Source: an uncultured archaeon
GTDB taxonomy: Archaea; Aenigmatarchaeota; Aenigmatarchaeia; CG10238-14; SCSR01
Assembly: GCA_964539655.1 (NCBI GenBank)
Contig: CAZIJH010000002.1
Location: 8,741-72,740 of the forward strand
DNA: 64,000 nt
Direction: 5' to 3'
The position numbers were made by a program, and so were the translations under genes. Numbering within the stretch: position 1 is the stretch's first letter; every line of letters begins with the position of its first letter. This document shows, piece after piece, positions 35,550-63,545 of this stretch. A model generated the notes under the pieces. The model ran no database searches and was not told where the DNA came from. It saw only the letters and a program-made list of their open reading frames with translations.

Positions 35550-36389
35550 TTATTTCTGTTTTTTAATCAGCTCGGAAACTTTCCTCACGTCTTCGCCGTT
35601 GTGCACGTTCACCCAGTTCCCCCCGATATGGAATCCGACAAGCTTGTCTTCCGCCGAAAGTTTCGGGAATATATTTTCCTGCAGGCTCCAGCAAATTTCC
35701 CCTGGAGGTATGTAGTTGAAAATTTCGGGCTTCATGAAACCGGCCAGCACTCCAGCAAGCCTGGTTTTAGGCTTTGCCGAATTTTCCTCGAAGCTGATTA
35801 TCCTGTGTCCTTCCATATCAATTATGCTTTTCTTCCAGTCGTAGCTCGTCCTCGCGTGCACACCGATCGTTGCGACTCCTCCGTACGTGTTGTGGAATTC
35901 CGCAAGCTTCCTCAAGTCGAAACCTATGTAGAAAGTGCTCGATAAAAATAGGAAATCGTTTTTGATGTAGTTCATCGCCAGCTCGAGAGTCTTCGCGCTA
36001 CCAAGAGACTTCTTTTCCTCTATGTATACGATCTTCACTTTGTATTTTTCCCCGCCGCCAAGGATCTCGTAAATTTTCGAAATAACTGAAGTAAATCCGA
36101 CAATGATGATGTTGGAGTATCCGGCCTCTCTGCATTTGGAAATCGTGTCCTCGATCAGCGTAGTCTTCCCGTTAATAATTGTGCACGGCCTAAGGACATC
36201 AGAATTTTCGAGAAGAAGTTTTTCAGGATCCCCTCCTGCAAGGATAACCGCAGTTTTCTGTCCCGTCAGATGATCTCTCAATATTTTTTCAATCGCATCG
36301 GAGCGCGACTTCACAATTATTCCGTCGATTTTTTTGTCAAGGTCCGACATGATTTCCTTGTCAATGGTCAACGAAATCCGTTTTTTCAT
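35550..36389 (-). CDS. Ribbon-helix-helix (CopG/NikR-like) DNA-binding domain fused to sugar-phosphate nucleotidyltransferase domain
   Basis: N-terminal KRISLTIDKEIMSDLDKKIDGIIVKSRSDAIEKILRDHL is an RHH. From residue ~45, AVILAGGDPEKL... is an NTP_transferase fold. Confidence 0.7.
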   Translation of the reverse strand: MKKRISLTIDKEIMSDLDKKIDGIIVKSRSDAIEKILRDHLTGQKTAVILAGGDPEKLLLENSDVLRPCTIINGKTTLIEDTISKCREAGYSNIIIVGFTSVISKIYEILGGGEKYKVKIVYIEEKKSLGSAKTLELAMNYIKNDFLFLSSTFYIGFDLRKLAEFHNTYGGVATIGVHARTSYDWKKSIIDMEGHRIISFEENSAKPKTRLAGVLAGFMKPEIFNYIPPGEICWSLQENIFPKLSAEDKLVGFHIGGNWVNVHNGEDVRKVSELIKKQK

Positions 36390-36406
36390 GTTTTATCATA
36401 CTGTAG

Positions 36407-36425
36407 TATTACTTTATATTACTTT
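36407..36425. promoter_or_regulatory. Tandem direct repeat TATTACTTT-A-TATTACTTT in divergent promoter region between RHH-NTase gene and UDP-glucose dehydrogenase operon
   Basis: Seen directly. It is a candidate operator for the RHH domain. Confidence 0.3.
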
Positions 36426-36468
36426 CGTTAGCTATTTATTCGATTTTTTTGAAGTATGGTAAGATAGT

Positions 36469-37779
36469 ATGAAAGTTTCTGTAATAGGCACAGGGTACGT
36501 CGGACTTACAGTCGCATGCTTGGCCGACTTCGGGCACAAGGTAATCTTGATTGGGAGAGCCCATGACAAGATAGATCTTATTAACAGCGGGGTATCCCCG
36601 ATATACGAGCCCGGGCTCGACGAAATTATAAAGAGAAACATCGACAACGGAAACCTGAAGGCAACCGATGATTACAATGAAATTCTTGACAGTGACGTAG
36701 TCTTCGTTTGTGTGGGCACTCCTTCGAGGTATGACGGCTCGATAGATCTTTCTCAAATTCAGGATGCGACAAAATCGATCGGAGAGAAACTGAAACTTAC
36801 AAACAAATACATAGTTGTCACAGTAAAAAGCACAGTTGTCCCCAACACGACTAAAGATTTCGTAACTCCAATTTTGGAAAAATATTCCGGAAAGAATTCG
36901 GGAAAAGATTTCGGCGTCGGAATGAATCCGGAATTCTTGAAAGAGGGAACGGGTGTCAGCGATTTTCTTTATCCGGACAAGATTGTGATCGGCGGAATGG
37001 ACGAGAGATCCAAGAGTGTCCTCGTCGATTTGTACAGCTGTCTCGATGCAAAATATCCGAGAGTATTGACAAATTTAACAACAGCCGAAATGATAAAGTA
37101 TGCGCAGAATTCCGCGCTGGCTGTCAGGATTTCTTTTATCAACGAGATTGCCAACATTTGCGAAAGAACCGGGGTCGATGTGGTTGATGTTGCAAAATCA
37201 ATTGGAATTGACACAAGAATAGGTCCGAAATTTTTAAACGCGGGTATAGGTTATGGGGGAAGTTGCTTTCCGAAAGATGTGAAGGCGCTCATCGCGATTG
37301 CAAAATCGGCCGGAGTTGATCCGAAAATTCTGCAATCGACAATTGATGTAAATGACGGCCGCGCTTCGCATGCGATTGATATGGCCAATCAAATACTTGG
37401 AAATCTTAACGGAAAGAAAATCGGAGCTCTGGGGCTTGCATTCAAGCAGGACACAGACGACATAAGAGAGTCGAAAGCAATCGCTGTTATACAATCGCTC
37501 TTGAGCCAGGGAGCGCAAGTCCAAGCATACGATCCGCAGGCAACTGCGAACGCGAAAGAAATTCTCAAGGACTCAATAAAATATTGCTCGACGAAAGAAG
37601 AGTGCCTGGATGGGATTGATCTGTGCATGGTTCTCACGGAATGGGACGAATTCAGAAATCTCGATCTTTCAAAAATAAAATGCCCGATATTCGACGGAAG
37701 AAGAGTCGTAAATCCGCAGAAAGCGAAAGAATTCGGCGTCGAATACAGTGGAATCGGATGGGGTGGTTATTCTGGTTAA
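36469..37779 (+). CDS. UDP-glucose/UDP-sugar 6-dehydrogenase family (Ugd/WecC-like)
   Basis: N-terminal VIGTGYVGL Rossmann motif, catalytic GGSCFPKD and a C-terminal UDP-binding domain. Confidence 0.85.
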   Translation: MKVSVIGTGYVGLTVACLADFGHKVILIGRAHDKIDLINSGVSPIYEPGLDEIIKRNIDNGNLKATDDYNEILDSDVVFVCVGTPSRYDGSIDLSQIQDATKSIGEKLKLTNKYIVVTVKSTVVPNTTKDFVTPILEKYSGKNSGKDFGVGMNPEFLKEGTGVSDFLYPDKIVIGGMDERSKSVLVDLYSCLDAKYPRVLTNLTTAEMIKYAQNSALAVRISFINEIANICERTGVDVVDVAKSIGIDTRIGPKFLNAGIGYGGSCFPKDVKALIAIAKSAGVDPKILQSTIDVNDGRASHAIDMANQILGNLNGKKIGALGLAFKQDTDDIRESKAIAVIQSLLSQGAQVQAYDPQATANAKEILKDSIKYCSTKEECLDGIDLCMVLTEWDEFRNLDLSKIKCPIFDGRRVVNPQKAKEFGVEYSGIGWGGYSG

Positions 37780-38608
37780 GGCAATTATTCTAGCTGCTGG
37801 AAAAGGAACGAGACTGAGACCCCTCACTTACGGAATTCCAAAACCGCTTCTTCCAGTAAAAGGAAAGCCCATGGTTGACTGGGTAATCAGGAGCGTCATG
37901 GGAAAGAACGTAGACGGAATAATTCTCGCAGTATCGGGGACTGTCGGAGAGGATTCGCAGGAAAGAATGCTTTCGCATATTCACGGAATCTGCATAGACG
38001 CTTACATCAAGAATCTCAATTACAATTGCCCGATAAGAACAATACCTACTCCGCAGAGAGAGACGGCTGGTGATCTAAGATTCGTACTTGAGGAAGCCCA
38101 CATCAAAAAGGGAACAATTATTGTCGCATACGGTGACAACCTGACATCAGTCGACGTTGACAAGCTTCTTGATTATCATGAAAGATGCAAAAAGGAATTG
38201 GGGACAGTTGGAACAGTCGTTCTTTTCGAAGCTCCTGAAAACGAAGTGCACAGGTTCGGTATAGCAAAGCTGAAAAGCGTAAACGGATTTGATCTTATAG
38301 AAAATTTCATAGAGAAGCCGACCTTGCAGCAGGCTCCGTCCAGACTTGCAAACGCAGGATACTACATACTCGACGTGGAGGAAGTCTTCGACATGCTATC
38401 GAGAGAAAAAGTTAAAGTCGAGCATTCGCTGTTCCCTACGCTCGCGAGCCAAAACAAACTTGCCGCGTTCGTAACTAAGCTGCCATTCTGGATTGACATA
38501 AGTACGGTAGAAGCTTACGAATTGGCAAATAAGCTCGCTCACGATAATCTCATTTTGCCGCCGCCGGTGGCAGAGGTGAAAAACAATGGAAATGGATCAA
38601 ATAATTAA
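37748..38608 (+). CDS. Sugar-1-phosphate nucleotidyltransferase
   Basis: AIILAAGKGTRLRPLTYGIPKPLLPV is the G-x-G-T-R-L signature. GTG starts are at 37748 or 37763. Confidence 0.75.
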   Translation: MESDGVVILVKAIILAAGKGTRLRPLTYGIPKPLLPVKGKPMVDWVIRSVMGKNVDGIILAVSGTVGEDSQERMLSHIHGICIDAYIKNLNYNCPIRTIPTPQRETAGDLRFVLEEAHIKKGTIIVAYGDNLTSVDVDKLLDYHERCKKELGTVGTVVLFEAPENEVHRFGIAKLKSVNGFDLIENFIEKPTLQQAPSRLANAGYYILDVEEVFDMLSREKVKVEHSLFPTLASQNKLAAFVTKLPFWIDISTVEAYELANKLAHDNLILPPPVAEVKNNGNGSNN

Positions 38609-41018
38609 GCAAGACGTGGAAACAATCGCGAAGAACCTGGAAAGTTTCAGGGAAAAAATTAGTGGAAAGACTTTTCTTGTAACGGGCGGCGCCGGATTTC
38701 TCGGAAGCTGGGTGTGCGACACTGCGATAAGCCTCGGCGCAAAAGTTATCTGCGTTGACAATCTAGTTTCGGGAGTCGCAACCAATGTAGAACATTTAAT
38801 GAAAAATCCCAACTTCGAATTCATCAGTTCAGACATTCTGAACTTCGACACGGACAAAAAAATCGATTACATTTTTCACATGGCAAGCATAGCTTCGCCT
38901 CCATTGTATATGGAATATCCAATAGAGACTCTTGACTCGAACATATTCGGAACAAAAAGGATGCTCGAGCTCGCGAAAAAAAATAATTCTAGTGGATTCG
39001 TTTTCATGAGCACTTCAGAAGTTTACGGAAATCCTCCCGACGAGTTCGTTCCTACTCCAGAAACTTTCCATGGAGTCGTGAATTCATTTGGCCCGCGCAG
39101 CGTCTATGACGAAGGCAAGCGCGCCGCAGAGGCATACTGCTATTCTTTTTTCCAGAAATTCAAAATGCCAATCAGGATTTCAAGAACGTTCAACACCTAC
39201 GGCCCGAGGCTCGATGTGAAGTCTAGAACGAGTTACGGAAGGGCTCTCGTGAAATTCATTTCTCAAGCCATCGACGGCCAGCCGATTAGCATTTACAGCG
39301 ACGGGAAGCAGACCAGAAGTTTCTGTTACATCACAGACCAAATAGAAGGACTTTTCAGGCTCATACTTACTGAAGGTGTTGACGGGGAAGTTTTCAACAT
39401 CGGGCAGGAAGAAGAAATCACAATAGAAACGTTGGCCAGAATGATTGTCAATTTTACAGGATCAAGTTCTATCGTCGAGACAAACACGAAGCCGAACTAC
39501 GACTTGAAAGATGATCCGAGAAGGAGATGTCCGAATATTTCCAAGGCAAGATTGAAGCTTGCGTACAATCCAAAAGTAAAATTGGAAGTGGGTCTGAAAA
39601 GGACGATCGATTGGATAAAAATACACGCCGAAAAGGAAAAAGAAATTCTAAAAAAAAACTTTAGATCAGGCGACATAAGAGGAGTTTACGGCAAGGATCT
39701 TAATGAAGATACCGCGAAAAATATCGGCAAGGCGTATGGTACTTTCATCGGCGGCAGAGACGTTTTCGTCGGCAGGGATTTCAGAACAAGTAGCAAATCA
39801 TTATCAAAATCTTTGATTGACGGACTAATTTCTGTCGGATGCAATGTAATTGATTTGGGGGAGGTCACATCGCCTGTTCTTTATTTCGCCGTCGCCAAAA
39901 ACGGAAACAATGGCGGAATAATGGTCACCGCTAGCCACAACCCTCCAGAATGGAATGGCTTCAAACTGTGCAACCAAGACGGTTCTCTGATAGTCGAAGG
40001 GTTCGGAATGGAAAACGTGTTCGAAATTTTCGCGAGCGGAAAGTTTTTGAATAACGGAAAAATCGGGAATGTTTCCAGCAACGTCAAAATAATTGACGAA
40101 TACATTGATTTTGTCTCAGGAAAGATCAAAGCTAACAAAAAATTGAAAATTGTGATAGACACTGGTAACGGAACCGGAGTCCTTGTTGCCCCCAAAATTT
40201 TTACCAAGCTTGGGCATGAAATAATTTTGATAAACGAACAACCAGACGGTACATTTCCGTCTAGACCGTCCGATCCTAAGAATGGACATCTTACCAAATT
40301 GAAGGAAGAAGTTTTGAAAAACAACGCTGATTTTGGAGTGGCATATGACGGAGATGCTGACAGGATTGGGGTAATTGACGAGTCTGGAGATTTTATAGGC
40401 AATGGAAATGTAATGATAATGATTTTTTCGAAGATGTATCTCGAATCTAACCCCGGATCGAAAATAGTTTTTGACATCTGCTGCTCGTCCGCCGTTGAAG
40501 AATACATAAGAACAAACGGAGGAATACCGCTTGTTAACAGAGTCGGGCATGGCCACATAGTCAACAGGATGATAAAGGAGAATGCAATATTTGGCGGAGA
40601 ATTCAGTAACCATCTTTACTTTTCAGACATGTTCAATTTTGACGACGCGGTATATGCGAGCATGAAAATTTCAGAATTGCTTTCCGGAACTCAGATGAAA
40701 CTTTCTGACATAGTTTCGTTGTTACCGAAATATCCGAACACGGACATTTTTGAAATAAAATGTTCCGACCATTTGAAATTTAATGTCGTTGACGCAGTAA
40801 AAAACAAGATCAAAAAAAATGGAATGAAAACTTTGGACATAGATGGCGTGAAAGTTTTTTCAGACAACGGGTGGGCATTAATCAGAGCTTCAAACACACA
40901 ACCTGTAATAAAAATTAATGCCGAATCAAATACCTACGAGGATGCAAACAGGATTTTGGAAAACCATGCAAAGATTGTGCAGGAGGAGGTAATCAATCAT
41001 GAAAATTCTAATAACTGA
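38586..41018 (+). CDS. Bifunctional fusion: NAD-dependent epimerase/dehydratase (UDP-glucuronate decarboxylase-like, N-term ~340 aa) + phosphomannomutase/phosphoglucomutase (C-term ~460 aa)
   Basis: N-terminal VTGGAGFLGSWVCD plus the YxxxK region. From ~residue 350, FRSGDIRGVYG..., the TASHNPPEWNGFK active-site serine loop and GDADR Mg site mark the mutase. It is a single uninterrupted ORF. Confidence 0.75.
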   Translation: MEMDQIIKQDVETIAKNLESFREKISGKTFLVTGGAGFLGSWVCDTAISLGAKVICVDNLVSGVATNVEHLMKNPNFEFISSDILNFDTDKKIDYIFHMASIASPPLYMEYPIETLDSNIFGTKRMLELAKKNNSSGFVFMSTSEVYGNPPDEFVPTPETFHGVVNSFGPRSVYDEGKRAAEAYCYSFFQKFKMPIRISRTFNTYGPRLDVKSRTSYGRALVKFISQAIDGQPISIYSDGKQTRSFCYITDQIEGLFRLILTEGVDGEVFNIGQEEEITIETLARMIVNFTGSSSIVETNTKPNYDLKDDPRRRCPNISKARLKLAYNPKVKLEVGLKRTIDWIKIHAEKEKEILKKNFRSGDIRGVYGKDLNEDTAKNIGKAYGTFIGGRDVFVGRDFRTSSKSLSKSLIDGLISVGCNVIDLGEVTSPVLYFAVAKNGNNGGIMVTASHNPPEWNGFKLCNQDGSLIVEGFGMENVFEIFASGKFLNNGKIGNVSSNVKIIDEYIDFVSGKIKANKKLKIVIDTGNGTGVLVAPKIFTKLGHEIILINEQPDGTFPSRPSDPKNGHLTKLKEEVLKNNADFGVAYDGDADRIGVIDESGDFIGNGNVMIMIFSKMYLESNPGSKIVFDICCSSAVEEYIRTNGGIPLVNRVGHGHIVNRMIKENAIFGGEFSNHLYFSDMFNFDDAVYASMKISELLSGTQMKLSDIVSLLPKYPNTDIFEIKCSDHLKFNVVDAVKNKIKKNGMKTLDIDGVKVFSDNGWALIRASNTQPVIKINAESNTYEDANRILENHAKIVQEEVINHENSNN

Positions 41019-41937
41019 GCCGACATACTTCCCGAAAGACATAGAAGAAGAGTTGGAGAAACATTTCTCAATAGTTTCTAAAAAGACAAGCAGGGACGAA
41101 TTGATAAAAGAAATTTCAGATGCAGATATCGTTATTGTAAGAGCCTTAACCAAAATTGACAAGGAAGTTCTGGATTCGGCAAAAAATCTGAAATTAATCT
41201 GTTCGATGACAGCTGGGCTCGATCATATCGACATGGTATACGCAGCTTCGAAAGGAATAGAAGTTTTCAACTCAATCGGATACGCGACCACAGCGACAGC
41301 CGAATACACATGCTCAATTATAATGAACTTGCTCAGAAAGATTCCGTGGGGGTTCGAGAGCTTGAAAAATGGTAGATGGGAAGACAGATCCAAATTCCTT
41401 GGGACAGAACTCGAAGGGAAAACCGTCGGCGTTATAGGATTCGGAAGAATAGGAAGCAGGGTCGGAAAATATGCAAAGGCGTTCGGAGCGAACGTCATTT
41501 ACTACGATCCATATGTCAACAAATATGCAGTGAAAGAGATTGGAGCGCAGGAAGTTTCATTCAATGATCTGCTCAAGACTTCTGACATAGTAACAATACA
41601 TTCGTTCCTGTCAAAGGAAACCGAGAGCATGATTTCGAAAAAGGAAATTGAAATGATGAAAGAAAATTCCTTCATTGTAAACATCGCAAGAGGAAAAATA
41701 ATAAATGAATCTGACTTATTGGAAGCGCTGAAAAGCAAGAGGATTATGGGAGCAGCGTTGGACGTTTTCGAATGCGAACCGCTTGATGTCGGCAGCCCGC
41801 TGGTCAAGTACGCAACAGAAAACACCAATCTAGTTCTCACACCACACCTTGCTGGATCGACATCAGAATCGATAAGAAGCGCTGCGCAGATAGTGAAAGA
41901 TCACATCTCCGCAAAATTCATAAATCCCGGCGGTTAG
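40999..41937 (+). CDS. D-isomer-specific 2-hydroxyacid dehydrogenase family
   Basis: GVIGFGRIGSRVGKYAKAFG is the NAD site. The catalytic R/E/H triad region is present. Confidence 0.8.
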   Translation: MKILITEPTYFPKDIEEELEKHFSIVSKKTSRDELIKEISDADIVIVRALTKIDKEVLDSAKNLKLICSMTAGLDHIDMVYAASKGIEVFNSIGYATTATAEYTCSIIMNLLRKIPWGFESLKNGRWEDRSKFLGTELEGKTVGVIGFGRIGSRVGKYAKAFGANVIYYDPYVNKYAVKEIGAQEVSFNDLLKTSDIVTIHSFLSKETESMISKKEIEMMKENSFIVNIARGKIINESDLLEALKSKRIMGAALDVFECEPLDVGSPLVKYATENTNLVLTPHLAGSTSESIRSAAQIVKDHISAKFINPGG

Positions 41938-44171: not shown

Positions 44172-45251
44172 GTGATACACATAGTCTACGGGACGAGGGC
44201 AGAAATCATAAAATTTTCCCCGCTCATCAAGGAACTGGCAAGAAGGAAACTAAATTTCAAAGTAATTGACACAGGCGACCATGACACAAGCGAGATACGC
44301 AGAGAACTGAAGCTGCGCACACCGGACTACTATTTTGGTAAATCTTTGAGGGAAGTCTGGTCGAAAATGTTTTTTCCCGCAGCAGCCGCATTAACGTTGG
44401 CTTGGGGATTTTCTACCTTCCTCAGGCTGCTAAAAATATTTTCTAAAGAGGGCGAAGTCATAGTCTACCACGGCAATACAAAGATAATTCCACTGGTGGC
44501 GCTTGCAAAAAAGATCCTGTTTTTCAAAAAACTTACGCTGGTCCATTACGAATCTGGGATGAGGGGGAAAACAAACGAATCGTCCTCGTTCGATTTTTAT
44601 GCAAAGTTCGGTGACAAGTTTTCGGACGTCCTGTTTGTGCAATCGGAAAGCTGCAGACGAAATATTTTGAAAGAAAAAATCAAAGGGAAAATTGTTTTTA
44701 TCGGAGACACGGTTCCGGATGTGATCAAAGAAGTGACGAAAATAAAACCTGGCGCAAGTTTGCGAAAAGGAAAATACGTGTTGGTAAATTCCACGAGATC
44801 AATAACAAGCGGTGGCAAGGCGTCCGAATTTGTAAACATAATAAACAATTCGCCGATCGATGTTGTGCTATCGCTCAACCCGAGGATGGTGTACAATCTG
44901 AAAAAATTCGGTGCATATGAAAAAATTGATTTCGGCAAAGTAGAATTGTTCAAAAGTTCCAGCTACGTCGATTTCATTCGTGAAATGAAAAATTCAAAAT
45001 TCGTAATTACAGACAGCCAGGGAGTGCAGCAGGAAAGCGTAGCTCTCGGAAAACCGTGCATAGTTTTGAACGATTTTATCCAAATGCCCGAGCTGAAGAA
45101 AACAGGTTTGATTAATGTGGCAGGATTTGACAGCGGAAAGATATTGAAAATTTTAAACGGGAAAAATAATTTTAAAAATGTTAAAAGCAAAACAAATTCG
45201 AGCAGCAAATCCACCAAAACCGCCGCAGACTATTTGGAGGAACTCGTATGA
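44172..45251 (+). CDS. UDP-N-acetylglucosamine 2-epimerase-like protein
   Basis: IVYGTRAEIIKFSPLIKEL matches the FGTRPEAIKMAP signature of non-hydrolysing 2-epimerases. Confidence 0.6.
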   Translation: MIHIVYGTRAEIIKFSPLIKELARRKLNFKVIDTGDHDTSEIRRELKLRTPDYYFGKSLREVWSKMFFPAAAALTLAWGFSTFLRLLKIFSKEGEVIVYHGNTKIIPLVALAKKILFFKKLTLVHYESGMRGKTNESSSFDFYAKFGDKFSDVLFVQSESCRRNILKEKIKGKIVFIGDTVPDVIKEVTKIKPGASLRKGKYVLVNSTRSITSGGKASEFVNIINNSPIDVVLSLNPRMVYNLKKFGAYEKIDFGKVELFKSSSYVDFIREMKNSKFVITDSQGVQQESVALGKPCIVLNDFIQMPELKKTGLINVAGFDSGKILKILNGKNNFKNVKSKTNSSSKSTKTAADYLEELV

Positions 45252-56305: not shown

Positions 56306-56991
56306 TTGTGATCCCTCGATAGTCTGACGAGCATCCTGAAAAATGCAGGTATCTCTTTCCTCCCGAGTTTGGATTTTCCTATTTTCCTGTTAACGAATTT
56401 TATTGGAATCTCCGAAATTTTAAAACCGTTCTTGAAAATTTTGTAGAGGATTTCTATCTGGAAATTGTAATCTTTGCTCGAGATCTTTTTAAGATTTATT
56501 TTCTTGAAAATATTTTTTCTGTATCCGCGGTATCCGCTAGTCGGGTCCTTGATCGGCATGCCGAGAACCATTCTTGTGAGCACGCTGGCCCCAGAACTTA
56601 TAAATTTTCTGTCGACGCCCCAGCCTTCCACCTTTCCTCCTGGGATCTTCCTCGATCCTATGACCATGTCGTTAGTTTTCAAACCCTTCAAAATATTCTT
56701 GATGTAAATGGGATCGTGGCTCAGGTCGGCGTCCATTGTAATTATGAAGTCTCCGCGTGCGGAAATCATTCCAGTTTTCAAAGCTGACCCGAGACCGCTA
56801 TCTTTCTGTCTGATGACTCTTGCCCCAGCTTTTTTCGCACGCGAAGGAGTGTCGTCATTTGATTTGTCGACAATTACGATCTCGTGCCTAGATTGTTTGA
56901 GAACGCTATGGATGCGATTGATGAGTTCTCCGATTCCTGGCTCGTTCATTGTCGGGATTATTACTGATATCATTTGAATCAATATTAACAA
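56302..56991 (-). CDS. GT2 polyprenyl-/dolichyl-phosphate glycosyltransferase (Dpm1-like)
   Basis: ISVIIPTMNE, IVIVDKSNDDT and TMDADLSHDP. Confidence 0.8.
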   Translation of the reverse strand: MLILIQMISVIIPTMNEPGIGELINRIHSVLKQSRHEIVIVDKSNDDTPSRAKKAGARVIRQKDSGLGSALKTGMISARGDFIITMDADLSHDPIYIKNILKGLKTNDMVIGSRKIPGGKVEGWGVDRKFISSGASVLTRMVLGMPIKDPTSGYRGYRKNIFKKINLKKISSKDYNFQIEILYKIFKNGFKISEIPIKFVNRKIGKSKLGRKEIPAFFRMLVRLSRDHK

Positions 56992-57059: not shown

Positions 57060-58379
57060 ATGGACGAAAACGAGATTAGAAACCAGATAAACAGTCTCGT
57101 GAAGGAATTCTTTGTTCTCAAAAATCAAAAGAAGAAATTCGTTCCTGGAGAAACTTTTGTCCAGTACTCGGGGGATCTGACAAGCGAAAGCGAGATCAAC
57201 GCAGCTGTGTCGACGCTGCTCGACGGAAGACTTGCGTTCGGCAAGAGAGTCGAGGAATTCGAAAACAATTTTGCAAACTATCTTGGGGTCAAGCACGCGT
57301 CCGCCGTGAGCACGGGGTCGGACGCTTGCATGCTTTCGATGCATGCGATGATGAACAAACATCTTGAAAATCCGATCAAGGCCGGCGACGAAGTTATCGT
57401 ATGCGCGCTGAATTTCGCTACGCCGATAAGTTCGCTCGTTTTCAGCGGGCTGAAGCCTGTTTTCGTCGACACAAATATCAGCAATTATACGATCAACACC
57501 GATAGGATCGAGGAAGCGATAACAGACAAGACGAGGATGATAATCGCGACGCACATTTTCGGAAGCGTGTGCAACATGGACAAGATAATGGAGCTCGCTA
57601 AGAAATATAACCTCCGTGTTATCGAGGATTGCTGCGATGCACACGGCTCACTATACGACGGAAGAAAAGTCGGTTCGATCGGAGACACTGGAGCATTCTC
57701 ATTTTATCCGGCGCACGGAATGACGATGGGCGGAGAAGGCGGAATAATTTCCACGAACGACGAGAACATCCACGACGTGGTAAGATCGATAAGGATGTGG
57801 GGAAGGGCGCTCCCGTGCAAGATATGCGGGAAGGATCTTTCGAAAGAATGCATGTATCATCACAACATTGATCTTGCCGGAATGGAAGACTACGACATCA
57901 ATTATCTTTTCATAAATCTCGGATTCAATTCGAAGATTACAGAGGTGCAGGGAGCGTTCGGACTCGAGCAGCTCAAGAAGCTCGACGACTTCAACAAGAT
58001 CAGGGATTCGAACTTCAATTACATTGTCAACGGACTGAAACCTTACGAGGACGTTTTGGTTTTGCCGAAAGCAGTCGACAAGGCGAAGCCGGCATGGTAT
58101 ACAATCCCGCTCACGATAAAGCCTGGAGCGAATTTCACGAGAAAAGAAATCACCGACGAGCTTGCGAGAGCGAAAATAGAATACAGGTTCCTTTTCACAG
58201 GAAATATTTTGAAACAGCCGGCATACAGAAATATCGATCACAGAGTTTCAGGTTCGTTGGAAAATGCTGATCTCACCACGACGAATTCGTTCTTCGTCGG
58301 ATGCTATCAGGGAATGACTCCGGAAATGAGAGAATACATCGTGCAGACAATGTCAAACTTCTTGGACAAGCACAAATAA
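57060..58379 (+). CDS. DegT/DnrJ/EryC1/StrS-family PLP-dependent sugar aminotransferase
   Basis: 439 aa with this fold. A PLP lysine region (NxxK-like) lies around DCCDAHG...FSFYPAHGMT. Confidence 0.85.
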   Translation: MDENEIRNQINSLVKEFFVLKNQKKKFVPGETFVQYSGDLTSESEINAAVSTLLDGRLAFGKRVEEFENNFANYLGVKHASAVSTGSDACMLSMHAMMNKHLENPIKAGDEVIVCALNFATPISSLVFSGLKPVFVDTNISNYTINTDRIEEAITDKTRMIIATHIFGSVCNMDKIMELAKKYNLRVIEDCCDAHGSLYDGRKVGSIGDTGAFSFYPAHGMTMGGEGGIISTNDENIHDVVRSIRMWGRALPCKICGKDLSKECMYHHNIDLAGMEDYDINYLFINLGFNSKITEVQGAFGLEQLKKLDDFNKIRDSNFNYIVNGLKPYEDVLVLPKAVDKAKPAWYTIPLTIKPGANFTRKEITDELARAKIEYRFLFTGNILKQPAYRNIDHRVSGSLENADLTTTNSFFVGCYQGMTPEMREYIVQTMSNFLDKHK

Positions 58380-58442
58380 TTTCTTCGGATCAACGACGTT
58401 AATTTAAATTGTCGGAATTCCCTTTATCTTTAAAGTGACCTT

Positions 58443-59945
58443 ATGAATTCCGGAGAGAAGCTTGTCGGCAACAGTTTCTTTTTGTTCACGGACTGGTTTT
58501 CGCTCACGGTTTTGTCGTTGCTATACTGGTTCGTGATTGGCAAGACGCTTCCTCCTGAAAATTACGGGATAATCGCGACATCCACAAACCTGATACTGAT
58601 GATCTCGGGGCTGAGCCTAATAGGAATGCAGCTGACTGTGCCGAAGCTCGTTTCAGAGTATGCGCAAAAAAAACAATACGACAAGCTGAAAAGTCTCGTC
58701 TCATTCTCGATGAAGATCGTGATACTCATCGTGTCTGCAATCTCGCTTTCGATGATTCTTTTCTCGGGATTCTTCACGAATCTTTTCAATCTTCCGCTTG
58801 ACGCGCTGATAATAGTTTCAGTCAGCCTGTTCGTCTGGTCCCTGTGGAGCCTGTCGACTTCCATTCTTCTCGGGCTGCAGAACATGAAATACATATTCCA
58901 AACCAACCTCGTGGGAAACATTTTGAGAATTTTACTGGCGGTCGCGATGATTTCCGCAGGCTTTGCATACGTCGGTCCGTTGGCAGCTACGCTGATAGGA
59001 CTTTTCCTGATTATCTTATTGCGATGGAAATTTTTCAGCCTGTACAGTCCGGCGAAAATAAACAAGAAGCAGGTTATAATGAAGTACGCGATTCCCGCAT
59101 TCGTCGCAGGGATAGCAGTCATACTTTTTTCAAACGCTCCCAACATCATACTTAACACGATACAAGGTCCCGCAGTAACAGGATTGTTCGCGATTGCGAT
59201 CACGGTCTCGTCGCCGCTCGCCACAATTCCTTCAACATTCTCTTCCGCGTCTTTCCCGATAGTGTCCGCTCTTTCAACGGAGCGAAATCCAAACAAGAAG
59301 CAGATGAGGCTGATAAATTTCGCAACACGCTACTCTTTCTTCATGACAATCCCGGCTTTCACAATCCTGATCGTTTTTGCTGAAAAAATATTGCTGATGT
59401 TTTCGAGAGTGGAATATCTTCCTGCGGTGCAGCTGATACCGATAATCGCTCTGTCGACAATAGTCTGGGGCGTGGGGCAGATATTCAATTCCAGCATATA
59501 CGCGATAAGGAAGCCTAACGTCAGCAGGAACATAGTGGTGCTTTCGACAATAACATTTTTCGTGATGGCATTCCCACTCACGTACATTCTCTCGTCTTTC
59601 GGCACGGCTGTGTCGTATCTTGCTTCGACTCTTGTGTTCGCGATCCTGAGTTACGCGTATCTGCGCAAATCAATAAAATTGAAATTCGACTCGATGGTGT
59701 TCATGAAAATAATCTCGTCGAGCATACTGTTCGGAGCAATCATTTACTCGGTCAAATTTTTCGACAACATCATAATCAAATTTTTGCTGCTCTCATTGGG
59801 GATTGCCAGCTATTTCGGAATTCTTTTGGTGATGAAATATTATTCGAAAGACGACGCGAGAGTGTTCGAAATAATTTCCATGAAGTCCCCGGTTTTCAAG
59901 AAGCAGATTATGCAGATATCCAAATTCATTTCAGACAATTCCTAG
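58443..59945 (+). CDS. Polysaccharide biosynthesis / oligosaccharide flippase (Wzx/MOP superfamily), ~14 TM
   Basis: 500-aa polytopic protein with Polysacc_synt-like topology. Confidence 0.7.
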   Translation: MNSGEKLVGNSFFLFTDWFSLTVLSLLYWFVIGKTLPPENYGIIATSTNLILMISGLSLIGMQLTVPKLVSEYAQKKQYDKLKSLVSFSMKIVILIVSAISLSMILFSGFFTNLFNLPLDALIIVSVSLFVWSLWSLSTSILLGLQNMKYIFQTNLVGNILRILLAVAMISAGFAYVGPLAATLIGLFLIILLRWKFFSLYSPAKINKKQVIMKYAIPAFVAGIAVILFSNAPNIILNTIQGPAVTGLFAIAITVSSPLATIPSTFSSASFPIVSALSTERNPNKKQMRLINFATRYSFFMTIPAFTILIVFAEKILLMFSRVEYLPAVQLIPIIALSTIVWGVGQIFNSSIYAIRKPNVSRNIVVLSTITFFVMAFPLTYILSSFGTAVSYLASTLVFAILSYAYLRKSIKLKFDSMVFMKIISSSILFGAIIYSVKFFDNIIIKFLLLSLGIASYFGILLVMKYYSKDDARVFEIISMKSPVFKKQIMQISKFISDNS

Positions 59946-60950
59946 GAAAGGAATCGCCGCGAACGCCGCCTGTATCAGCATCATTCCGACGACGATCTGC
60001 CTTTCGGTCAATCCGAACCTCATCATCAGATGGGTCCACGAATAAATTTTGTTTCCGTACTTCGATTTTATTTTTCCGTTAGCCTGAACGACACCGAGAT
60101 CGGACGCGAATCTACCGAGCTTGTATATCGAATAGAATTTCAGAATTCCCTGAATGATGAAAGGAGTCATAACGATTATCGCTATCTTCTCCATGTTTCC
60201 GATTATCGCTCCTACAGCAACGACCGCTCCGAGCACGTAGGGCAGAGTGTCCCCAGGAAGAATTTTCGCCGGAGAGAAATTGTACCTCAGGAGAGCAAGC
60301 AACGCTGCGAACGTCGACAAGAAAAGAAGAGCGGCTTCCATATTTCCATTCATGAAAGAGAAAATTCCCAATGACAATGTGTATACTGCTCCCATTCCTG
60401 CTTCGAGCCCGTTGAATCCCCCGAGCATGTTCACCATGTTCGAAGCTCCGACTACCCCGATAGGAATTATCAGAAGCGGGAAAAGCAGTCCAAAATCTAC
60501 AGTGCCGATGATCGGAAACGTCATCTGAGTCATTCCGGCCATTATCGCCATCAGCGGGAGCGCCGCGGGAAAAGTGAGCGCGACCTTCTGCCATCTTTTC
60601 AATCCGAGTTTTCCTTCTATGTGCCCGAGAATCCTCACCTGAACGACGTTGAGATCGTCAATGAAGCCCGCGGCAGTTATTATCATTATCGAGGTGAGCG
60701 CCGCGAAAATTTTCAGCATCGACGTGTTGTCCCCGTATATGAAAACGTTGAGGAAGATGTACGCGAGGAGCGCGAACATTATTCCCATCGTGACGGGAAC
60801 GCCCGCGGAATGGGGAAGGATGGGGTCGCCGACTTTGTGCACGTCGGTGCTCGTGAGCTTGACGAACCTGAAATACCTTATGAAAAACGGAATCGAGAAC
60901 AAAGTCGCGAGGAACGCGATGGAGATTGAAATTGTCAGTATCGTTACCAT
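59931..60950 (-). CDS. Polyprenyl/dolichyl-phosphate N-acetylhexosamine-1-phosphate transferase (MraY/WecA/AglH family)
   Basis: AGFIDDLN and NMVNMLGGFNGLEAG match the MraY/WecA DDxxD and NxxNxxDGxDGL motifs. Confidence 0.75.
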   Translation of the reverse strand: MVTILTISISIAFLATLFSIPFFIRYFRFVKLTSTDVHKVGDPILPHSAGVPVTMGIMFALLAYIFLNVFIYGDNTSMLKIFAALTSIMIITAAGFIDDLNVVQVRILGHIEGKLGLKRWQKVALTFPAALPLMAIMAGMTQMTFPIIGTVDFGLLFPLLIIPIGVVGASNMVNMLGGFNGLEAGMGAVYTLSLGIFSFMNGNMEAALLFLSTFAALLALLRYNFSPAKILPGDTLPYVLGAVVAVGAIIGNMEKIAIIVMTPFIIQGILKFYSIYKLGRFASDLGVVQANGKIKSKYGNKIYSWTHLMMRFGLTERQIVVGMMLIQAAFAAIPFLGIV

Positions 60951-61011
60951 GTTTCCACTTTGCTTGTTAATTTAGTTGGGACGTTTAAAATTAATAAAGA
61001 TAGCCAGACTC

Positions 61012-63201
61012 TTACGTTATTGCCGCACCAGACAGCGTGTCATTGTAGGATGTTGAGTTGATAGTTATGTTTATCGGATACACTCCGTTTGCATCATAGC
61101 TGTTCTCAATCAGAATCAAAACATTTTCCGAACCGTTAAGCGTGGTTGCTTGGTCCGAATTAATTTCCTCCTCTCCGTTGTTGAATATCCATGAAAGCAG
61201 CCTCTGCCCCGCATTATTGCCTGCAATCACCTCGACAATCGCGCTGCTTGGATTCTCGGAAAGGACAATCTGACTAATTATCTCTGCAATTTTAATAACA
61301 AAGCTGCCGGAAAGAGAGTCGCTTGAATTCGCACCTGACGCCAATATCGTCAAGTTTCTTCTGCCAGAATCGTAATTATTTTCAATATACGCCACCAAAG
61401 ATTCTCCCTGAGTGAGATTCACTGTTGTGTTTGAAACGCTCGGCTCGGAAATGTTCCATGAGATGGTCTCGTTTGTCGGCCAGTTGTTGGCGACTGCGAA
61501 TTCGACAATCTTGTCGGTCTTATTCGATTCGTGTATATCATAGTAACCGATGTTCAATCCGTTCAAAACAAAAGACTCGTTGAAGATGTCGTTCATGCTA
61601 CCCGACGATATTCCGACGGATACAGTTTTCTTGCCGTCAGTCGTGTAATTTATGTCCCTTGAAATTACTGCGGTTCCGTTAGTGTCGAGTGTCACCTGAT
61701 CCTGAAATGTCTGGCCCTCGCTTGTTATGTTCCAGTTTATTGTCGACTGGCTGTAGTAATTCTTTATTGCGAATTGGACTAAACGGTTGTTCGCTCTTGT
61801 GGTAGTGCCGTTGTAATCTTCAATCTCGATTCCTTTTATTTCGAAGCCGACAGACTCAGTGTCATTTCCGTCAGTCGAATTTACGGAACACACCAATGTC
61901 TTCAGGCCAGAAGCGGCGTAGTCGTACACTCTGTCGAAAGTGGATTGGCCGTTGGCTGAAACTTGGAACTGGGAATCCGAGGTCTGGCCGTTGTTGCAGC
62001 TCCACCAGACATTTTGAGAAGTCTGGTCCATATCGTTCCTTACTATCAGCCTGTAAGAAGTGTTCGCAGCATCCCTTGCCGTGATAGAAAGGGATTGTAC
62101 AGATATTCCGAACTTTGCGCTAGCATTTTCGAAATCGATGGAATTGCCAGATGATTGAGCAGTCAAGTTTATTTTGTAATTCCCGCCAGCGTTGAATTCC
62201 TGCTCGACCACAAAAAATATTGATTCGTTTGTGGTTACGTTGAACGGAACAGACGAGTTGACTATTGTGCTATTTCCGAAATCAATTGTCCAATTTGCAT
62301 TTGTAACTGTTGCATTCTTTTCATTCGCGAGATAGAATTCGAAGTACCTTGTCCTATTAGTCGAATTCAAACTGGAAGCTTTGTGCAAATCTATTCCGGA
62401 CTCGACGGTCGTTATTCTAGACGGAGCATGCACAGGACTATTGCCATAGATGAATTTCGTCGTATTCAATCCGTCCCTCGCTATCTTCAGTATGTTTCCG
62501 ATCGCATTGTACGAATAGATGTAAGTCTTATCATCGATTGACGCATTAACGAGCCTGTCAAGAAAGTCGTAAACCATTCTATAAGTTTTGGAATTCGCAG
62601 AATCATTGATCAATATCACGTTGCCAACCGAATCGTAAGAATAATTCAGTTGCTGAATGTCTCCGGTCTTTATCTGTTTCAGTCTGGAATTCTGGCTGTC
62701 GTATGAAAATTCCGAAAGTTTCGAATTATAATACGTCTTGTTCGATATTTTGTCGAATGCATCATAGAAAGAATTGTTTATGAAACCGAGAATTTTTCCG
62801 GCTTTACTCTGATTGTTGTAATAGTACTCGGTGCCGTTTCCTGGAGTTAACGTCTGCTTTACTAACCTATCCATCGAGTCGTAGTAGTATCTTTTTTCAA
62901 ATTCAATCCCATCGACAGTTTTGATTTCACGTATCAGTCTCATTTTCTGGTCATATTCGTATCTGTAGCTTCCGTTCGTAAAAGTAATATTTGACAGGGT
63001 TCCTTCGTATTGGCCGTCGTACGCGTAAGTTATGTTCACCGTAGTGGAATTTTTAGTCAGAATCCTGTTTAGATGGTCATAGGTAATATTCACTTGATTT
63101 GTCGGACTGTCATATGTAAAATCTTGAATAGTCGCAAAAGTTGCCGGAGAAAATAAAATAAAAAATCCAAGAACAAACAAAATAAAATTAATTTTCTTCA
63201 T
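61012..63201 (-). CDS. Secreted YD/RHS-repeat protein with C-terminal tandem beta-sandwich-like repeats; ~40 N-x-S/T sequons
   Basis: Signal peptide MKKINFILFVLGFFILFSPATFA. YD repeats YAYDGQ, YYYDSMDRLV, YSYDSVGNVIL, YDFLDRLV and YSYNAIGNIL. The C-terminal ~350 aa consist of three to four ~70-aa repeats (NWNITSEG..., ISWNISEP..., LSWIFNNG...). Confidence 0.7.
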   Translation of the reverse strand: MKKINFILFVLGFFILFSPATFATIQDFTYDSPTNQVNITYDHLNRILTKNSTTVNITYAYDGQYEGTLSNITFTNGSYRYEYDQKMRLIREIKTVDGIEFEKRYYYDSMDRLVKQTLTPGNGTEYYYNNQSKAGKILGFINNSFYDAFDKISNKTYYNSKLSEFSYDSQNSRLKQIKTGDIQQLNYSYDSVGNVILINDSANSKTYRMVYDFLDRLVNASIDDKTYIYSYNAIGNILKIARDGLNTTKFIYGNSPVHAPSRITTVESGIDLHKASSLNSTNRTRYFEFYLANEKNATVTNANWTIDFGNSTIVNSSVPFNVTTNESIFFVVEQEFNAGGNYKINLTAQSSGNSIDFENASAKFGISVQSLSITARDAANTSYRLIVRNDMDQTSQNVWWSCNNGQTSDSQFQVSANGQSTFDRVYDYAASGLKTLVCSVNSTDGNDTESVGFEIKGIEIEDYNGTTTRANNRLVQFAIKNYYSQSTINWNITSEGQTFQDQVTLDTNGTAVISRDINYTTDGKKTVSVGISSGSMNDIFNESFVLNGLNIGYYDIHESNKTDKIVEFAVANNWPTNETISWNISEPSVSNTTVNLTQGESLVAYIENNYDSGRRNLTILASGANSSDSLSGSFVIKIAEIISQIVLSENPSSAIVEVIAGNNAGQRLLSWIFNNGEEEINSDQATTLNGSENVLILIENSYDANGVYPINITINSTSYNDTLSGAAIT

Positions 63202-63545
63202 AATACATTTCCTCCGATATACATCAGCTCCTTGAATGGCGTGTAGATAGTGGTGTTCGCGGAATCGTTCCTCAAAATTTTAATGCGCTGTCCGAACGGA
63301 TCGTAGGTGTAGTTCTCGATTTCAACGGAATGATTTTCCAGGAAGACCTCGAATCCTATCAGATAATTGGAGAAGTTGCCGGAGTCGTTTGTTGCCGTAT
63401 CTACATAGGTGCCAACGGTTTCGAAGATGGTGAGATTAATCGGGAGTACTGGAGAAGAAGATTGTATGTAATCAAGGGCATAGGTTGGTTGTAAATGAAT
63501 TAAAGAGACTAAAAAAATAAATAAGGCTAAGAAAATTAATTTCAT
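63198..63545 (-). CDS. Small secreted YD-repeat protein (115 aa)
   Basis: Signal peptide plus YTYDPFGQRIKIL YD motif. It has an ATGA overlap with the downstream YD-repeat gene. Confidence 0.55.
   Translation of the reverse strand: MKLIFLALFIFLVSLIHLQPTYALDYIQSSSPVLPINLTIFETVGTYVDTATNDSGNFSNYLIGFEVFLENHSVEIENYTYDPFGQRIKILRNDSANTTIYTPFKELMYIGGNVL

Follow-up and report, generated by a model that had tools for sequence, protein, structure and literature searches.

What would an archaeon do with two sets of a Dpm1-like glycosyltransferase and a GT-C membrane glycosyltransferase, placed in a sugar-gene island in which no AglB is found? The question arises from a 64-kb stretch of DNA, hereafter the window, whose host is a member of Candidatus Aenigmatarchaeota (DPANN), as indicated by archaeal informational genes and the named relatives of its PolB. 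Searches of Pfam, NCBIfam and the PDB confirmed the gene content, and almost all the gene calls of an earlier sequence-only reading hold. The island extends from 35550 to at least 63952 and runs to the end of the window, so that the 28 kb given in that reading is a lower bound. We regard the locus as a cell-surface glycan cluster, most likely for N-glycans, and we favor, with reasonable though not strong confidence, an N-glycan-type locus with two Dol-P-sugar/GT-C modules and an AglB encoded elsewhere.

The genes assigned to sugar precursors are the following:

35550..36389, minus strand: sugar-1-phosphate nucleotidyltransferase at the left edge of the island (Pfam NTP_transferase, 51.5 bits; NCBIfam matches weak)
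36469..37779, plus strand: UDP-sugar 6-dehydrogenase, first gene of a long plus-strand operon (all three Pfam UDPG_MGDP_dh domains)
37748..38608, plus strand: sugar-1-phosphate nucleotidyltransferase (Pfam NTP_transferase, 103.8 bits)
38586..41018, plus strand: fusion of an SDR epimerase/dehydratase and a phosphohexomutase (PGM/PMM), 810 aa (Pfam domains)
40999..41937, plus strand: D-2-hydroxyacid dehydrogenase family protein (Pfam 2-Hacid_dh_C, 200 bits)
41946-43061, plus strand: SDR NDP-sugar epimerase/dehydratase (Pfam Epimerase, 172 bits)
43071-44114, plus strand: SDR NDP-sugar epimerase/dehydratase (Pfam Epimerase, 129.5 bits)
44172..45251, plus strand: UDP-GlcNAc 2-epimerase-like protein (Pfam Epimerase_2, 92.6 bits)
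47443..48318, plus strand: SDR epimerase/reductase (Pfam Epimerase, 173 bits)
57060..58379, plus strand: E1/RfbH-type PMP-dependent NDP-4-keto-6-deoxyhexose 3-dehydrase (NCBIfam RfbH, 432.7 bits; cut-off 423)

Pfam thus bears out the set first read from the letters, namely a UDP-sugar 6-dehydrogenase, two nucleotidyltransferases, a PMM fusion, four SDR proteins and a 2-epimerase-like protein, together with a 2-hydroxyacid dehydrogenase and two methyltransferases. The UDP-sugar 6-dehydrogenase scores above the cut-off of NCBIfam NDP-sugDHase (462.7 bits) and under that of the AglM-like family (475 bits; cut-off 670). In the 810-aa fusion, Pfam Epimerase covers residues 31-273 and PGM_PMM I-IV residues 357-793, and its score against Arch_GlmM is 409 bits, under the cut-off of 439; the 2-epimerase-like protein is likewise under the cut-off for wecB (117.8 bits). 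The SDR at 41946-43061 has a homologue of 69% identity in the syntenic locus L086. The gene at 57060..58379, initially called a DegT aminotransferase, was reassigned as a 3-dehydrase on account of its RfbH score, a full-length 316-bit match to PDB 3bcx/3bb8 with 'SFYPAH' aligned, and the replacement of the Schiff-base Lys by His. Together, these cytoplasmic enzymes would supply a set of activated sugars, among them a uronic acid and, probably, a 3-deoxy or 3,6-dideoxy hexose.

[quoted passage not shown]

32366..32917, plus strand: PAP2 phosphatase, outside the island proper (Pfam PAP2, 73.3 bits)
45248-46360, plus strand: GT4 glycosyltransferase (Pfam Glycos_transf_1, 103 bits)
46357-47436, plus strand: GT4 glycosyltransferase (Pfam Glycos_transf_1, 99 bits)
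48350..49327, plus strand: GT2 glycosyltransferase of the ordinary oligosaccharide-building type, 325 aa (Pfam Glycos_transf_2, 84 bits)
49332..49925, plus strand: SAM-dependent methyltransferase (Pfam Methyltransf_11 and Methyltransf_23)
49922-50896, plus strand: GT4 glycosyltransferase (Pfam Glycos_transf_1)
50893-51999, plus strand: GT4 glycosyltransferase (Pfam Glycos_transf_1)
58443..59945, plus strand: Wzx/AglR-type MOP-family flippase, 500 aa (Pfam Polysacc_synt, 53.8 bits; MatE; MurJ)
59931..60950, minus strand: polyprenyl-phosphate HexNAc-1-phosphate transferase of the AglH/WecA/MraY family (Pfam Glycos_transf_4, 103.8 bits)

The AglH/WecA-like transferase, the Wzx-like flippase and the nearby PAP2 phosphatase had all been proposed and were recovered with Pfam, whereas the count of six soluble GT4/GT2 transferases is corrected to five, four GT4 and one GT2. 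The best NCBIfam matches of this GT2 are the polysaccharide synthases PgaC, HpsN and EpsD, not polyprenyl-phosphate transferases. The HexNAc-1-phosphate transferase likely initiates the lipid-linked glycan and would do so on dolichol phosphate, after which the four GT4 enzymes and the GT2 would extend it, the methyltransferase may modify it and the flippase would carry it across the membrane to the outer side. The PAP2 protein, which scores 44.8 bits against undecaprenyl-diphosphate phosphatase (cut-off 229), possibly recycles polyprenyl diphosphate.

Several of these genes recur in related loci. The initiating transferase has homologues of 56-58% identity in L085, L086 and L087; the GT4 pair at 45248-46360 and 46357-47436 has homologues in L086 with the gene order kept; and the pair at 49922-50896 and 50893-51999 has homologues of 51-59% identity in L085 and L086, the former with an additional one (53%) in L087. 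Flippase homologues are two and adjoining in L085, while in L086 one copy is intact and a further region was called as a pair of shorter ORFs. No GtrA-type flippase was found in the window. The sole MOP-family flippase would need to serve both oligosaccharide and monosaccharide carriers, a point that counts against the explanation we favor.

The two modules form a five-gene operon on the minus strand, in the order GT2-B, GT-C2, GT2-A, methyltransferase and GT-C1, with overlaps or gaps of at most 32 nt:

51994..53565, minus strand: GT-C1, membrane glycosyltransferase, 523 aa (Pfam PMT_2, 53 bits; cut-off 26.1)
53567..54223, minus strand: SAM-dependent methyltransferase between GT2-A and GT-C1, 4 nt and 1 nt from its two neighbors (Pfam Methyltransf_11, 94.8 bits)
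54228..54905, minus strand: GT2-A, short polyprenyl-phosphate sugar synthase of the Dpm1/AglD/GtrB/ArnC type, 225 aa (DxD motif, PDB and NCBIfam matches)
54938..56305, minus strand: GT-C2, short membrane glycosyltransferase with a small alpha/beta C-terminal domain, 455 aa (Pfam PMT_2 above threshold)
56302..56973, minus strand: GT2-B, short Dol-P-sugar synthase, 223 aa from ATG, a gene call taken from a Logan contig (motif and PDB match)

GT2-B and GT-C2 make up one module, and GT2-A, the methyltransferase and GT-C1 the other. The sequence-only reading called them duplicated, which stands for the architecture and not for the sequences: the GT2 proteins are 32% identical and the GT-C proteins 25% identical over 141 aa, and by this comparison the modules are divergent paralogues rather than the result of a recent duplication. 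In the synteny comparison, a GT2 gene next to a GT-C gene was seen again in four archaeal relatives, L005, L006, L085 and L086; L085 holds four GT-C, three short GT2 and two flippase genes within 21 kb.

The Dpm1-like assignment of both module GT2 proteins is upheld. Each keeps the DxD ('VQDADMA' in GT2-A and 'TMDADLSHDP' in GT2-B), has no TM segments, and finds in the PDB the P. furiosus Dol-P-Man synthase PfDPMS (5mlz) first and ArnC next. The 5mlz match reaches 70.7 bits for GT2-A and 120 bits (E 8.5e-34) for GT2-B, in the latter case spanning the catalytic domain and the interface helices. The best NCBIfam matches of both are all polyprenyl-phosphate glycosyltransferases (for GT2-A, AglJ, Dol-P-hexose transferase, PpgS, PgfS and ArnC); since the scores are far under the curated cut-offs of every named equivalog, they are orthologues of none of these.

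The GT-C assignment is similarly sustained, and both proteins match Pfam PMT_2 above threshold. They have 11-12 hydrophobic segments, and their families invariably carry an acidic motif (DD or DE) in the first outer loop, directly behind TM1. GT-C1 has some 11 TM segments, and its C-terminal outer domain is rich in beta structure; the invariants of its family are D30, D31, TFMTD124-128, R168/Q169 and R382/Y383. At the sequence level neither protein matched a solved structure, and at E<=0.01 neither passed a curated NCBIfam family (GT-C1 had no match and GT-C2 only sub-threshold Leptospira families). Their AlphaFold models match GT-C enzymes only (ArnT, ALG12, STT3, AglB and PMT). The AF2 model of GT-C1 (pLDDT 84, pTM 0.89) has ArnT as its first Foldseek match, followed by ALG12, PglB, Pmt4 and AglB; that of GT-C2, of moderate confidence, has ALG12 first with a similar score for ArnT.

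Could GT-C1 instead be an EpsG/Wzy-like polymerase that uses no Dol-P-sugar, in a Wzx/Wzy-type route to a free surface polysaccharide or lipoglycan? The flippase and the initiating transferase fit such a route, GT-C1 matches EpsG at 24.5 bits, and an adjacent Dpm1-like GT2 is missing from the loci of most bacterial GT-C1 homologues. That absence, found also at one GT-C2 locus (L087), weighs as well against the explanation we favor. We find the polymerase reading quite improbable: the EpsG score is under its cut-off of 30.1 while that of PMT_2 is above its own, an invariant DD together with TFMTD is what one typically sees in a GT-C glycosyltransferase, all significant Foldseek matches of GT-C1 (E up to 0.08) are lipid-phospho-sugar-dependent GT-C enzymes, a chain-length regulator is absent, and in the closest archaeal relatives (L005 and L006) the GT-C1 homologue adjoins a Dpm1-like GT2. 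The assignments instead support the logic of a lipid-phospho-monosaccharide made inside and used outside.

Next to the island genes are two secreted proteins whose sequons bear on the final acceptor:

61012..63201, minus strand: secreted YD/RHS-repeat protein, 729 aa (Pfam RHS_repeat, 30.9 bits; N-terminal hydrophobic signal-like segment)
63198..63545, minus strand: small secreted protein with a YD-like motif, 115 aa (assigned by sequence)

That the island ends in sequon-saturated surface proteins was substantiated by shuffling. In the 729-aa protein, a likely glycan acceptor, N-x-S/T occurs 42 times, where shuffles give 16.8 +/- 3.5, and in the 115-aa protein 7 times, where the shuffle mean is 1.3; in either case none of 5000 shuffles reached the count. 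The enrichment is 2.5-5 fold, and 54 of the 60 other genes have less than 1 sequon per 100 aa (maximum 1.62). Such enrichment in adjacent secreted proteins points to active N-glycosylation and argues for an oligosaccharyltransferase encoded elsewhere. In agreement with the sequence-only reading, no STT3/AglB Pfam match was found among the scanned ORFs, including all three of at least 600 aa outside the island, and no WWDYG-like motif in the six frames of the window; this absence applies to 64 kb of a 150-kb contig and says nothing about the genome. AglB is also lacking from the islands of five archaeal relatives, and it has been reported in DPANN archaea (PMC8993221).

The same absence, together with the sequons, would fit GT-C2 being a minimal non-canonical oligosaccharyltransferase, derived from STT3/AglB or sister to it, that transfers sugar to Asn and partly or wholly replaces AglB. 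Of the readings considered we give this one the least credence. GT-C2 has no Pfam STT3 match and only 1 of 42 members of its family does; no PDB chain resembles its C-terminal profile in sequence; ALG12 and ArnT lead its structural matches, in a model with a pLDDT of just 72; and its start is overlapped by 4 nt by the stop of GT2-B, a translational coupling to the gene of a monosaccharide-carrier synthase. The window's want of a WWDYG-like motif and the DPANN reports of AglB weigh against it as well.

A more serious alternative, still unlikely in our judgment, is that one or both GT-C proteins work as protein O-glycosyltransferases, as PMT, mycobacterial Pmt and streptococcal PgfM do, so that the Dol-P-sugar of the partner GT2 would give a single sugar straight to Ser/Thr of secreted proteins. 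The Asp-Glu in the first loop of GT-C2 is invariant and resembles the DE motif that eukaryotic PMTs carry there; both GT-C proteins match PMT_2, the donor logic is that of PMT (GT39) and Dpm1/Ppm1, and 14 of 42 members of the GT-C2 family match PMT PF02366. The 729-aa neighbor is 20% Ser+Thr. GT2-A has a sub-threshold match to PgfS, whose streptococcal system O-glycosylates Ser/Thr-rich regions (PMC12041528); we also count in its favor that, according to a 2018 review (PMC6098224), the enzymes behind archaeal O-glycosylation were then still to be identified. However, GT-C1 and GT-C2 match neither PF02366 nor the MIR domain, are much shorter than PMTs and resemble them structurally less than they do ALG12, STT3 and ArnT. 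The modules, moreover, sit within a locus for lipid-linked oligosaccharide assembly, and the enrichment is specific to N-x-S/T (42 versus 22 for the reversed motif).

Under the N-glycan explanation, GT2-A and GT2-B, separately from the oligosaccharide, would each charge dolichol phosphate with one sugar on the inner side of the membrane; after flipping, GT-C2 (with GT2-B) and GT-C1 (with GT2-A) would add that sugar outside, capping or branching a glycan. This acceptor may be the flipped lipid-linked oligosaccharide, in the logic of ALG3/9/12, or the protein-bound glycan, in that of AglS. The module methyltransferase may modify the module sugar or its lipid-linked form, and the glycan would be transferred to Asn by the AglB encoded elsewhere in the genome.

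Such steps had been thought uncommon in archaeal models, which does not hold: in Haloferax volcanii, AglD, AglR and AglS add the final mannose of the S-layer N-glycan, a Dpm1-like GT2 loading dolichol phosphate inside, a MOP/Wzx-family protein helping to flip it and a multi-spanning membrane transferase adding the mannose outside (PMC3871713). All three kinds of protein are present in the window, inside an agl-like cluster that also contains AglM-like and AglH-like genes, the AglS likeness of GT-C1 and GT-C2 being one of protein kind and not of compared sequence; unlike the haloarchaeal system, the window has two modules, and its GT2 proteins are short, lack a membrane anchor and score far under the haloarchaeal equivalog cut-offs. 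Bacterial three-component systems (GtrA/GtrB/Gtr*, ArnC/ArnT, CsbB/GtcA/YfhO and PpgS/Rv3779) follow the same logic: a polyprenyl-phosphate sugar synthase works alongside a GT-C enzyme, which decorates a completed glycan outside the membrane (PMC11127046). Among solved structures, ArnC ranks second for both GT2 proteins, and ArnT is the top structural match of GT-C1; neither window protein reaches the ArnC or ArnT equivalog thresholds; PpgS is a short GT2 (226-position profile), as are GT2-A and GT2-B. The window differs in lacking a GtrA-family flippase and in its carrier, which is probably dolichol because the host is an archaeon. The eukaryotic pairing of Dpm1 with the lumenal GT22/GT58 enzymes ALG12, ALG9 and ALG3 is more distant, with a sequence identity of just 12-15% and an extra C-terminal alpha/beta domain in GT-C2.

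The island is a real but fairly ordinary surface-sugar cluster of a tiny uncultured archaeon. Two of its enzyme pairs probably attach single sugars on the outside of the cell, by a mechanism for which archaea, bacteria and eukaryotes all offer precedents.

From its left edge at 35550, which follows closely on secF/secD and a PAP2 gene, the surface-glycan island reaches to the end of the window in four transcription units, the last of which has an arm on each strand:

35550-36389, minus strand: unit 1, a lone nucleotidyltransferase gene.
36469-51999, plus strand: unit 2, a 15-gene operon encoding in its first part a UDP-sugar dehydrogenase, a nucleotidyltransferase, an SDR-phosphohexomutase fusion, a 2-hydroxyacid dehydrogenase and two SDRs, and in its second part a 2-epimerase-like protein, two GT4s, an SDR, a GT2, a methyltransferase and two more GT4s.
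56973-51994, minus strand: unit 3, a five-gene operon with GT2-B, GT-C2, GT2-A, a methyltransferase and GT-C1, where GT2-A and GT2-B are short Dpm1-like proteins and GT-C1 and GT-C2 are membrane glycosyltransferases.
57060-59945, plus strand: unit 4, plus arm, a gene pair for an E1-type dehydrase and a Wzx-like flippase.
63952-59931, minus strand: unit 4, minus arm, with genes for a small membrane protein, two secreted sequon-rich proteins and an AglH/WecA-type initiating transferase.

In the five-gene operon, the first two genes overlap by 4 nt and the later junctions are gaps of 32, 4 and 1 nt, in this order; the plus-strand pair at 57060-59945 is convergent with the minus-strand unit at 63952-59931. 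The ORF listing and the profile searches bore out the gene map of the sequence-only reading almost item by item; instead of its six further GT4/GT2 transferases, we counted five. A 208-aa minus-strand ORF at 57018-57644 was rejected as a gene, having no Pfam match and sitting within the E1 dehydrase gene.

The scanned ORFs outside the island encode archaeal housekeeping proteins (FtsZ, Nop5, Hel308, Kae1, PolB, SecDF), the named relatives of the window PolB all belong to Candidatus Aenigmatarchaeota (55-57% identity), and the closest relative of GT-C1, the best match of a genome-contig scan with 42% identity, also comes from an Aenigmatarchaeota MAG; these genes clearly point to a DPANN archaeon as the host. 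PolB, PAP2, SecD and SecF lie immediately upstream of the glycan island (29616-36389), and directly upstream of PolB there is a 383-aa ORF (28461-29612, plus strand) that matches no Pfam family and whose sequon count, at 5, is slightly elevated. Since a PolB homologue (P0251) is found on the same 103,918-bp contig as L085, a related island, the chromosomal neighbourhood may be conserved between that contig and the window.

GT2-A (225 aa) and GT2-B (223 aa) have no hydrophobic segments. Their description as Dpm1-like could have failed through loss of the catalytic DxD; it stands, as both retain the motif, GT2-A in VQDADMA ('DAD') and GT2-B in TMDADLSHDP, aligned in both cases to 'DADLQH' of the Pyrococcus furiosus dolichol monophosphate mannose synthase (PfDPMS). 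Against all PDB sequences, PfDPMS (5mlz) is the best match of both proteins, followed by ArnC; the GT2-B match (residues 7-225 against 24-247; 120 bits, E 8.5e-34) spans the catalytic domain and the subsequent interface helices, and GT2-A scores 70.7 bits. The top NCBIfam matches of both are AglJ, the haloarchaeal Dol-P-hexose transferase, PpgS, PgfS and ArnC, all of which load a sugar on polyprenyl phosphate. All of these scores fall far short of the curated cut-offs; for orthology to AglJ, the AglD-type Dol-P-hexose transferase, PpgS or ArnC, they are 52-108 bits against 325-529. Because of the PfDPMS and ArnC matches on the one hand and these low scores on the other, both GT2s are predicted to work like Dpm1, AglD, GtrB or ArnC, yet are orthologues of none.

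GT-C1 (523 aa) and GT-C2 (455 aa) contain 11 and 12 hydrophobic segments, respectively, within the range of 8-13 TM helices of the polytopic GT-C enzymes; the AF2 models of both are helical bundles and resemble solved GT-C enzymes. Just past TM1 each carries an acidic motif, D30/D31 in GT-C1 (invariant in 14 sequences) and D31/E32 in GT-C2 (invariant in 42), and from the positively charged N-terminus we infer that the loop bearing it faces outward. GT-C1 matches Pfam PMT_2 above threshold and has no Pfam match to Glyco_transf_22; the residues kept over its 14 homologues are D30-D31, TFMTD124-128, R168-Q169 and R382-Y383. Its AlphaFold model (pLDDT 84, pTM 0.89) retrieved ArnT, ALG12, PglB, Pmt4, AglB and Emb with Foldseek, and other folds did not appear at comparable significance. 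GT-C2 matches both PMT_2 and the Alg9-like Glyco_transf_22 above threshold, the latter with 44.3 bits against a cut-off of 23.8 over residues 10-372. A word search retrieved six GT-C2 homologues only, whereas a profile search of 1.84 billion representatives gave about 34 clusters at a threshold of E<=1e-30, a number that grew to 519 when this was relaxed to E<=1e-10. Among 42 members of this family, D31, E32, Y35 and R310 are invariant, and the Pfam matches are to PMT_2 (41/42), Glyco_transf_22 (35/42), PMT (14/42) and STT3 (1/42, E 2e-4).

Neither protein passes any curated NCBIfam family, and sequence searches of PDB gave nothing meaningful for the profiles of GT-C1, of GT-C2 or of the C-terminal part of GT-C2. 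ArnT (GT83) is a structural neighbour only, as its NCBIfam family was matched by neither protein at E<=0.01. The possibility that they are O-antigen ligases or transporters was rejected, as there was no such Pfam match and transporters came up at noise level in the fold search; the GT-C assignment thus withstood this check. A Wzy/EpsG-like polymerase would be another identity for GT-C1, which does match EpsG, but at 24.5 bits, below the cut-off of 30.1. On sequence and model, GT-C1 and GT-C2 are GT-C glycosyltransferases of uncharacterised subfamilies.

The two modules, GT2-B/GT-C2 and GT2-A/methyltransferase/GT-C1, had been described as duplicated. This is right for the doubled architecture; a recent tandem duplication was rejected, as the identity is just 25-32% (32% between GT2-A and GT2-B; 25% over 141 residues between GT-C1 and GT-C2). 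Comparison with relatives showed that the adjacency of GT2 and GT-C recurs in four loci (L005, L006, L085 and L086). A Dpm1-like GT2 adjoins the GT-C gene in the closest archaeal relatives of GT-C1; in L006, a GT2-A homologue (52% identical) lies beside the GT-C1 homologue. L085 and L086, two contigs of more than 100 kb with GT-C2 homologues, keep much of the island, namely the four GT4 genes, the epimerase, the SDRs, the mutase, the AglH-like gene and the flippase, in L086 in the same order, and in both a 237-aa GT2 directly follows the GT-C2 homologue. The PolB proteins of the window and of the L085 contig share 57% identity, so L085 is the island of a related organism. The exceptions to the pairing are most of the bacterial GT-C1 homologues and L087, the single new locus from a further metagenome scan for GT-C2 loci, which have no adjacent Dpm1-like GT2.

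In L005 (Aenigmatarchaeota MAG JACQIF010000090.1, 2415-6191), a single Dpm1-like GT2 gene lies between two GT-C1 paralogues on opposite strands, which share 42% and 28% identity with GT-C1; the arrangement suggests that one lipid-sugar donor could serve two GT-C enzymes. L085 (ENA ERZ26692701 contig_1, 50882-72234) carries four GT-C genes (554, 563, 450 and 602 aa) within 21 kb, together with three short GT2 genes (of 234, 237 and 282 aa), a carbamoyltransferase and two Polysacc_synt flippases that lie side by side. Having several GT-C modules thus seems to be characteristic of the lineage. In L087 (JGI Ga0247727_10003556, 3979-7597), the GT-C2 homologue directly follows an AglH-like initiating transferase and converges on a 421-aa ORF, methyltransferase-like by the appearance of its sequence alone.

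The best-supported mechanism is one of split steps, in which the sugars, their acceptor and the part played by the embedded methyltransferase are all inferred. A lipid-linked glycan would be built in the cytoplasm and then flipped, and outside the cell two further steps would follow, in each of which a Dol-P-monosaccharide made by a GT2 would be used by its partner GT-C. In eukaryotes, ALG3, ALG9 and ALG12 are supplied by Dpm1. In Hfx. volcanii, Dol-P-mannose is made by AglD, its flipping is aided by AglR, and AglS puts the mannose on the protein-bound tetrasaccharide (PMC3871713), and bacteria use GtrB/GtrA/Gtr* and similar three-component systems to decorate glycans after their completion (PMC11127046). 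The logic of a donor made inside and used outside, already proposed in the sequence-only reading, is therefore retained; its claim that such steps are uncommon in archaeal models is not, as the split-step logic is established in archaea, bacteria and eukaryotes alike. Three-component systems have a dedicated flippase, of the GtrA family or AglR-like, for the lipid-phospho-monosaccharide; the window has one Wzx/Polysacc_synt protein and the relatives have two, and no GtrA-type flippase was found among the scanned ORFs, including the small membrane ORFs and a 135-aa four-TM ORF scanned at E<=1. The affinity of GT-C2 to Glyco_transf_22 and ALG12 slightly favours a glycan over a protein as its probable acceptor.

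It is also possible that the GT-C enzymes perform direct protein O-glycosylation, an idea with which the PMT_2 matches of both proteins, the DE motif and the streptococcal PgfS/GT-C precedent (PMC12041528) are consistent; the enzymes of archaeal O-glycosylation were unidentified as of a 2018 review (PMC6098224). It finds no specific support here; the only PMT profile matched by either protein is PMT_2 (PF13231) and not PMT (PF02366), and, unlike eukaryotic PMTs (GT39), which have MIR domains in a large lumenal loop, these proteins of only 523 and 455 aa have none. The GT-C2 family has the invariant DE and an apparently AglB-like core domain at the C-terminus that lacks WWDYG; together with GT-C1, it might glycosylate proteins directly in DPANN archaea instead of decorating glycans, as either an archaeal O-glycosyltransferase or a minimal STT3-related user of Dol-P-monosaccharide, but we consider this unlikely.

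The lack of AglB within the island was confirmed, as no ORF scanned in the window matched Pfam STT3 and the motif W[WYF][DE][YWF][GS] was absent from every frame of the window and of the five relatives' loci. The secreted proteins at the island end have 42 N-x-S/T sequons against 16.8 expected from their own composition (729 aa; 61012-63201, minus strand) and 7 against 1.3 (115 aa; 63198-63545, minus strand), counts reached by none of 5000 shuffles for either, and 54 of 60 other genes stay below 1 sequon per 100 aa (maximum 1.62). Such enrichment is the mark left when an Asn-directed oligosaccharyltransferase exerts selection. The search covered the window, less than half of one contig, these neighbouring proteins are sequon-enriched, and AglB has been reported from DPANN archaea (PMC8993221); that aglB is missing from the island therefore carries no information, and the weight once placed on it is withdrawn. 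In the stretch 61012-63952 (minus strand), the sequon-rich secreted proteins show YD/RHS-type repeats (e.g., YTYDPFGQRI, YAYDGQ), and G+C is markedly reduced: the value for 62-64 kb is 35.6%, compared with some 44% in other parts. The 135-aa protein upstream of them has four hydrophobic segments and no family match.

Among the sugar-supply genes, the one at 57060-58379 (plus strand), previously taken for a DegT aminotransferase, encodes instead an E1/RfbH-type PMP-dependent 3-dehydrase: it passes NCBIfam RfbH (432.7 against a cut-off of 423), aligns over its full length with 316 bits to the solved CDP-6-deoxy-L-threo-D-glycero-4-hexulose-3-dehydrase (PDB 3bcx), and carries SFYPAH, in which His replaces the Schiff-base Lys of aminotransferases, and the Cys-rich segment CKICGKDLSKEC. 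A 3-dehydrase suggests that a 3-deoxy or 3,6-dideoxy hexose is made, a kind of sugar of which we know no description in archaeal glycans. The island showed no recognisable E3-type reductase as its partner. The 810-aa ORF at 38586-41018 (plus strand) joins an SDR epimerase/dehydratase (residues 31-339) to a four-domain phosphohexomutase (357-793), the latter complete and slightly below the Arch_GlmM cut-off at 409 bits. Its L086 homologue was called as a 466-aa product with PGM_PMM domains only, so the fusion looks absent there, with the caveat that the L086 gene overruns the locus end.

The most useful product of this locus is the definition of two uncharacterised GT-C families with clear catalytic motifs. 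It shows no new mechanism, and takes a known one into a new, under-studied lineage; the literature searched held no account of how surface glycans, the probable mediators of host-cell contact, are assembled in DPANN archaea. Were either GT-C enzyme to have protein as its direct acceptor, it would supply the missing machinery of archaeal O-glycosylation. With two to four GT-C genes per island in this locus and its relatives, Aenigmatarchaeota invest heavily in extracytoplasmic, GT-C-dependent glycosylation.
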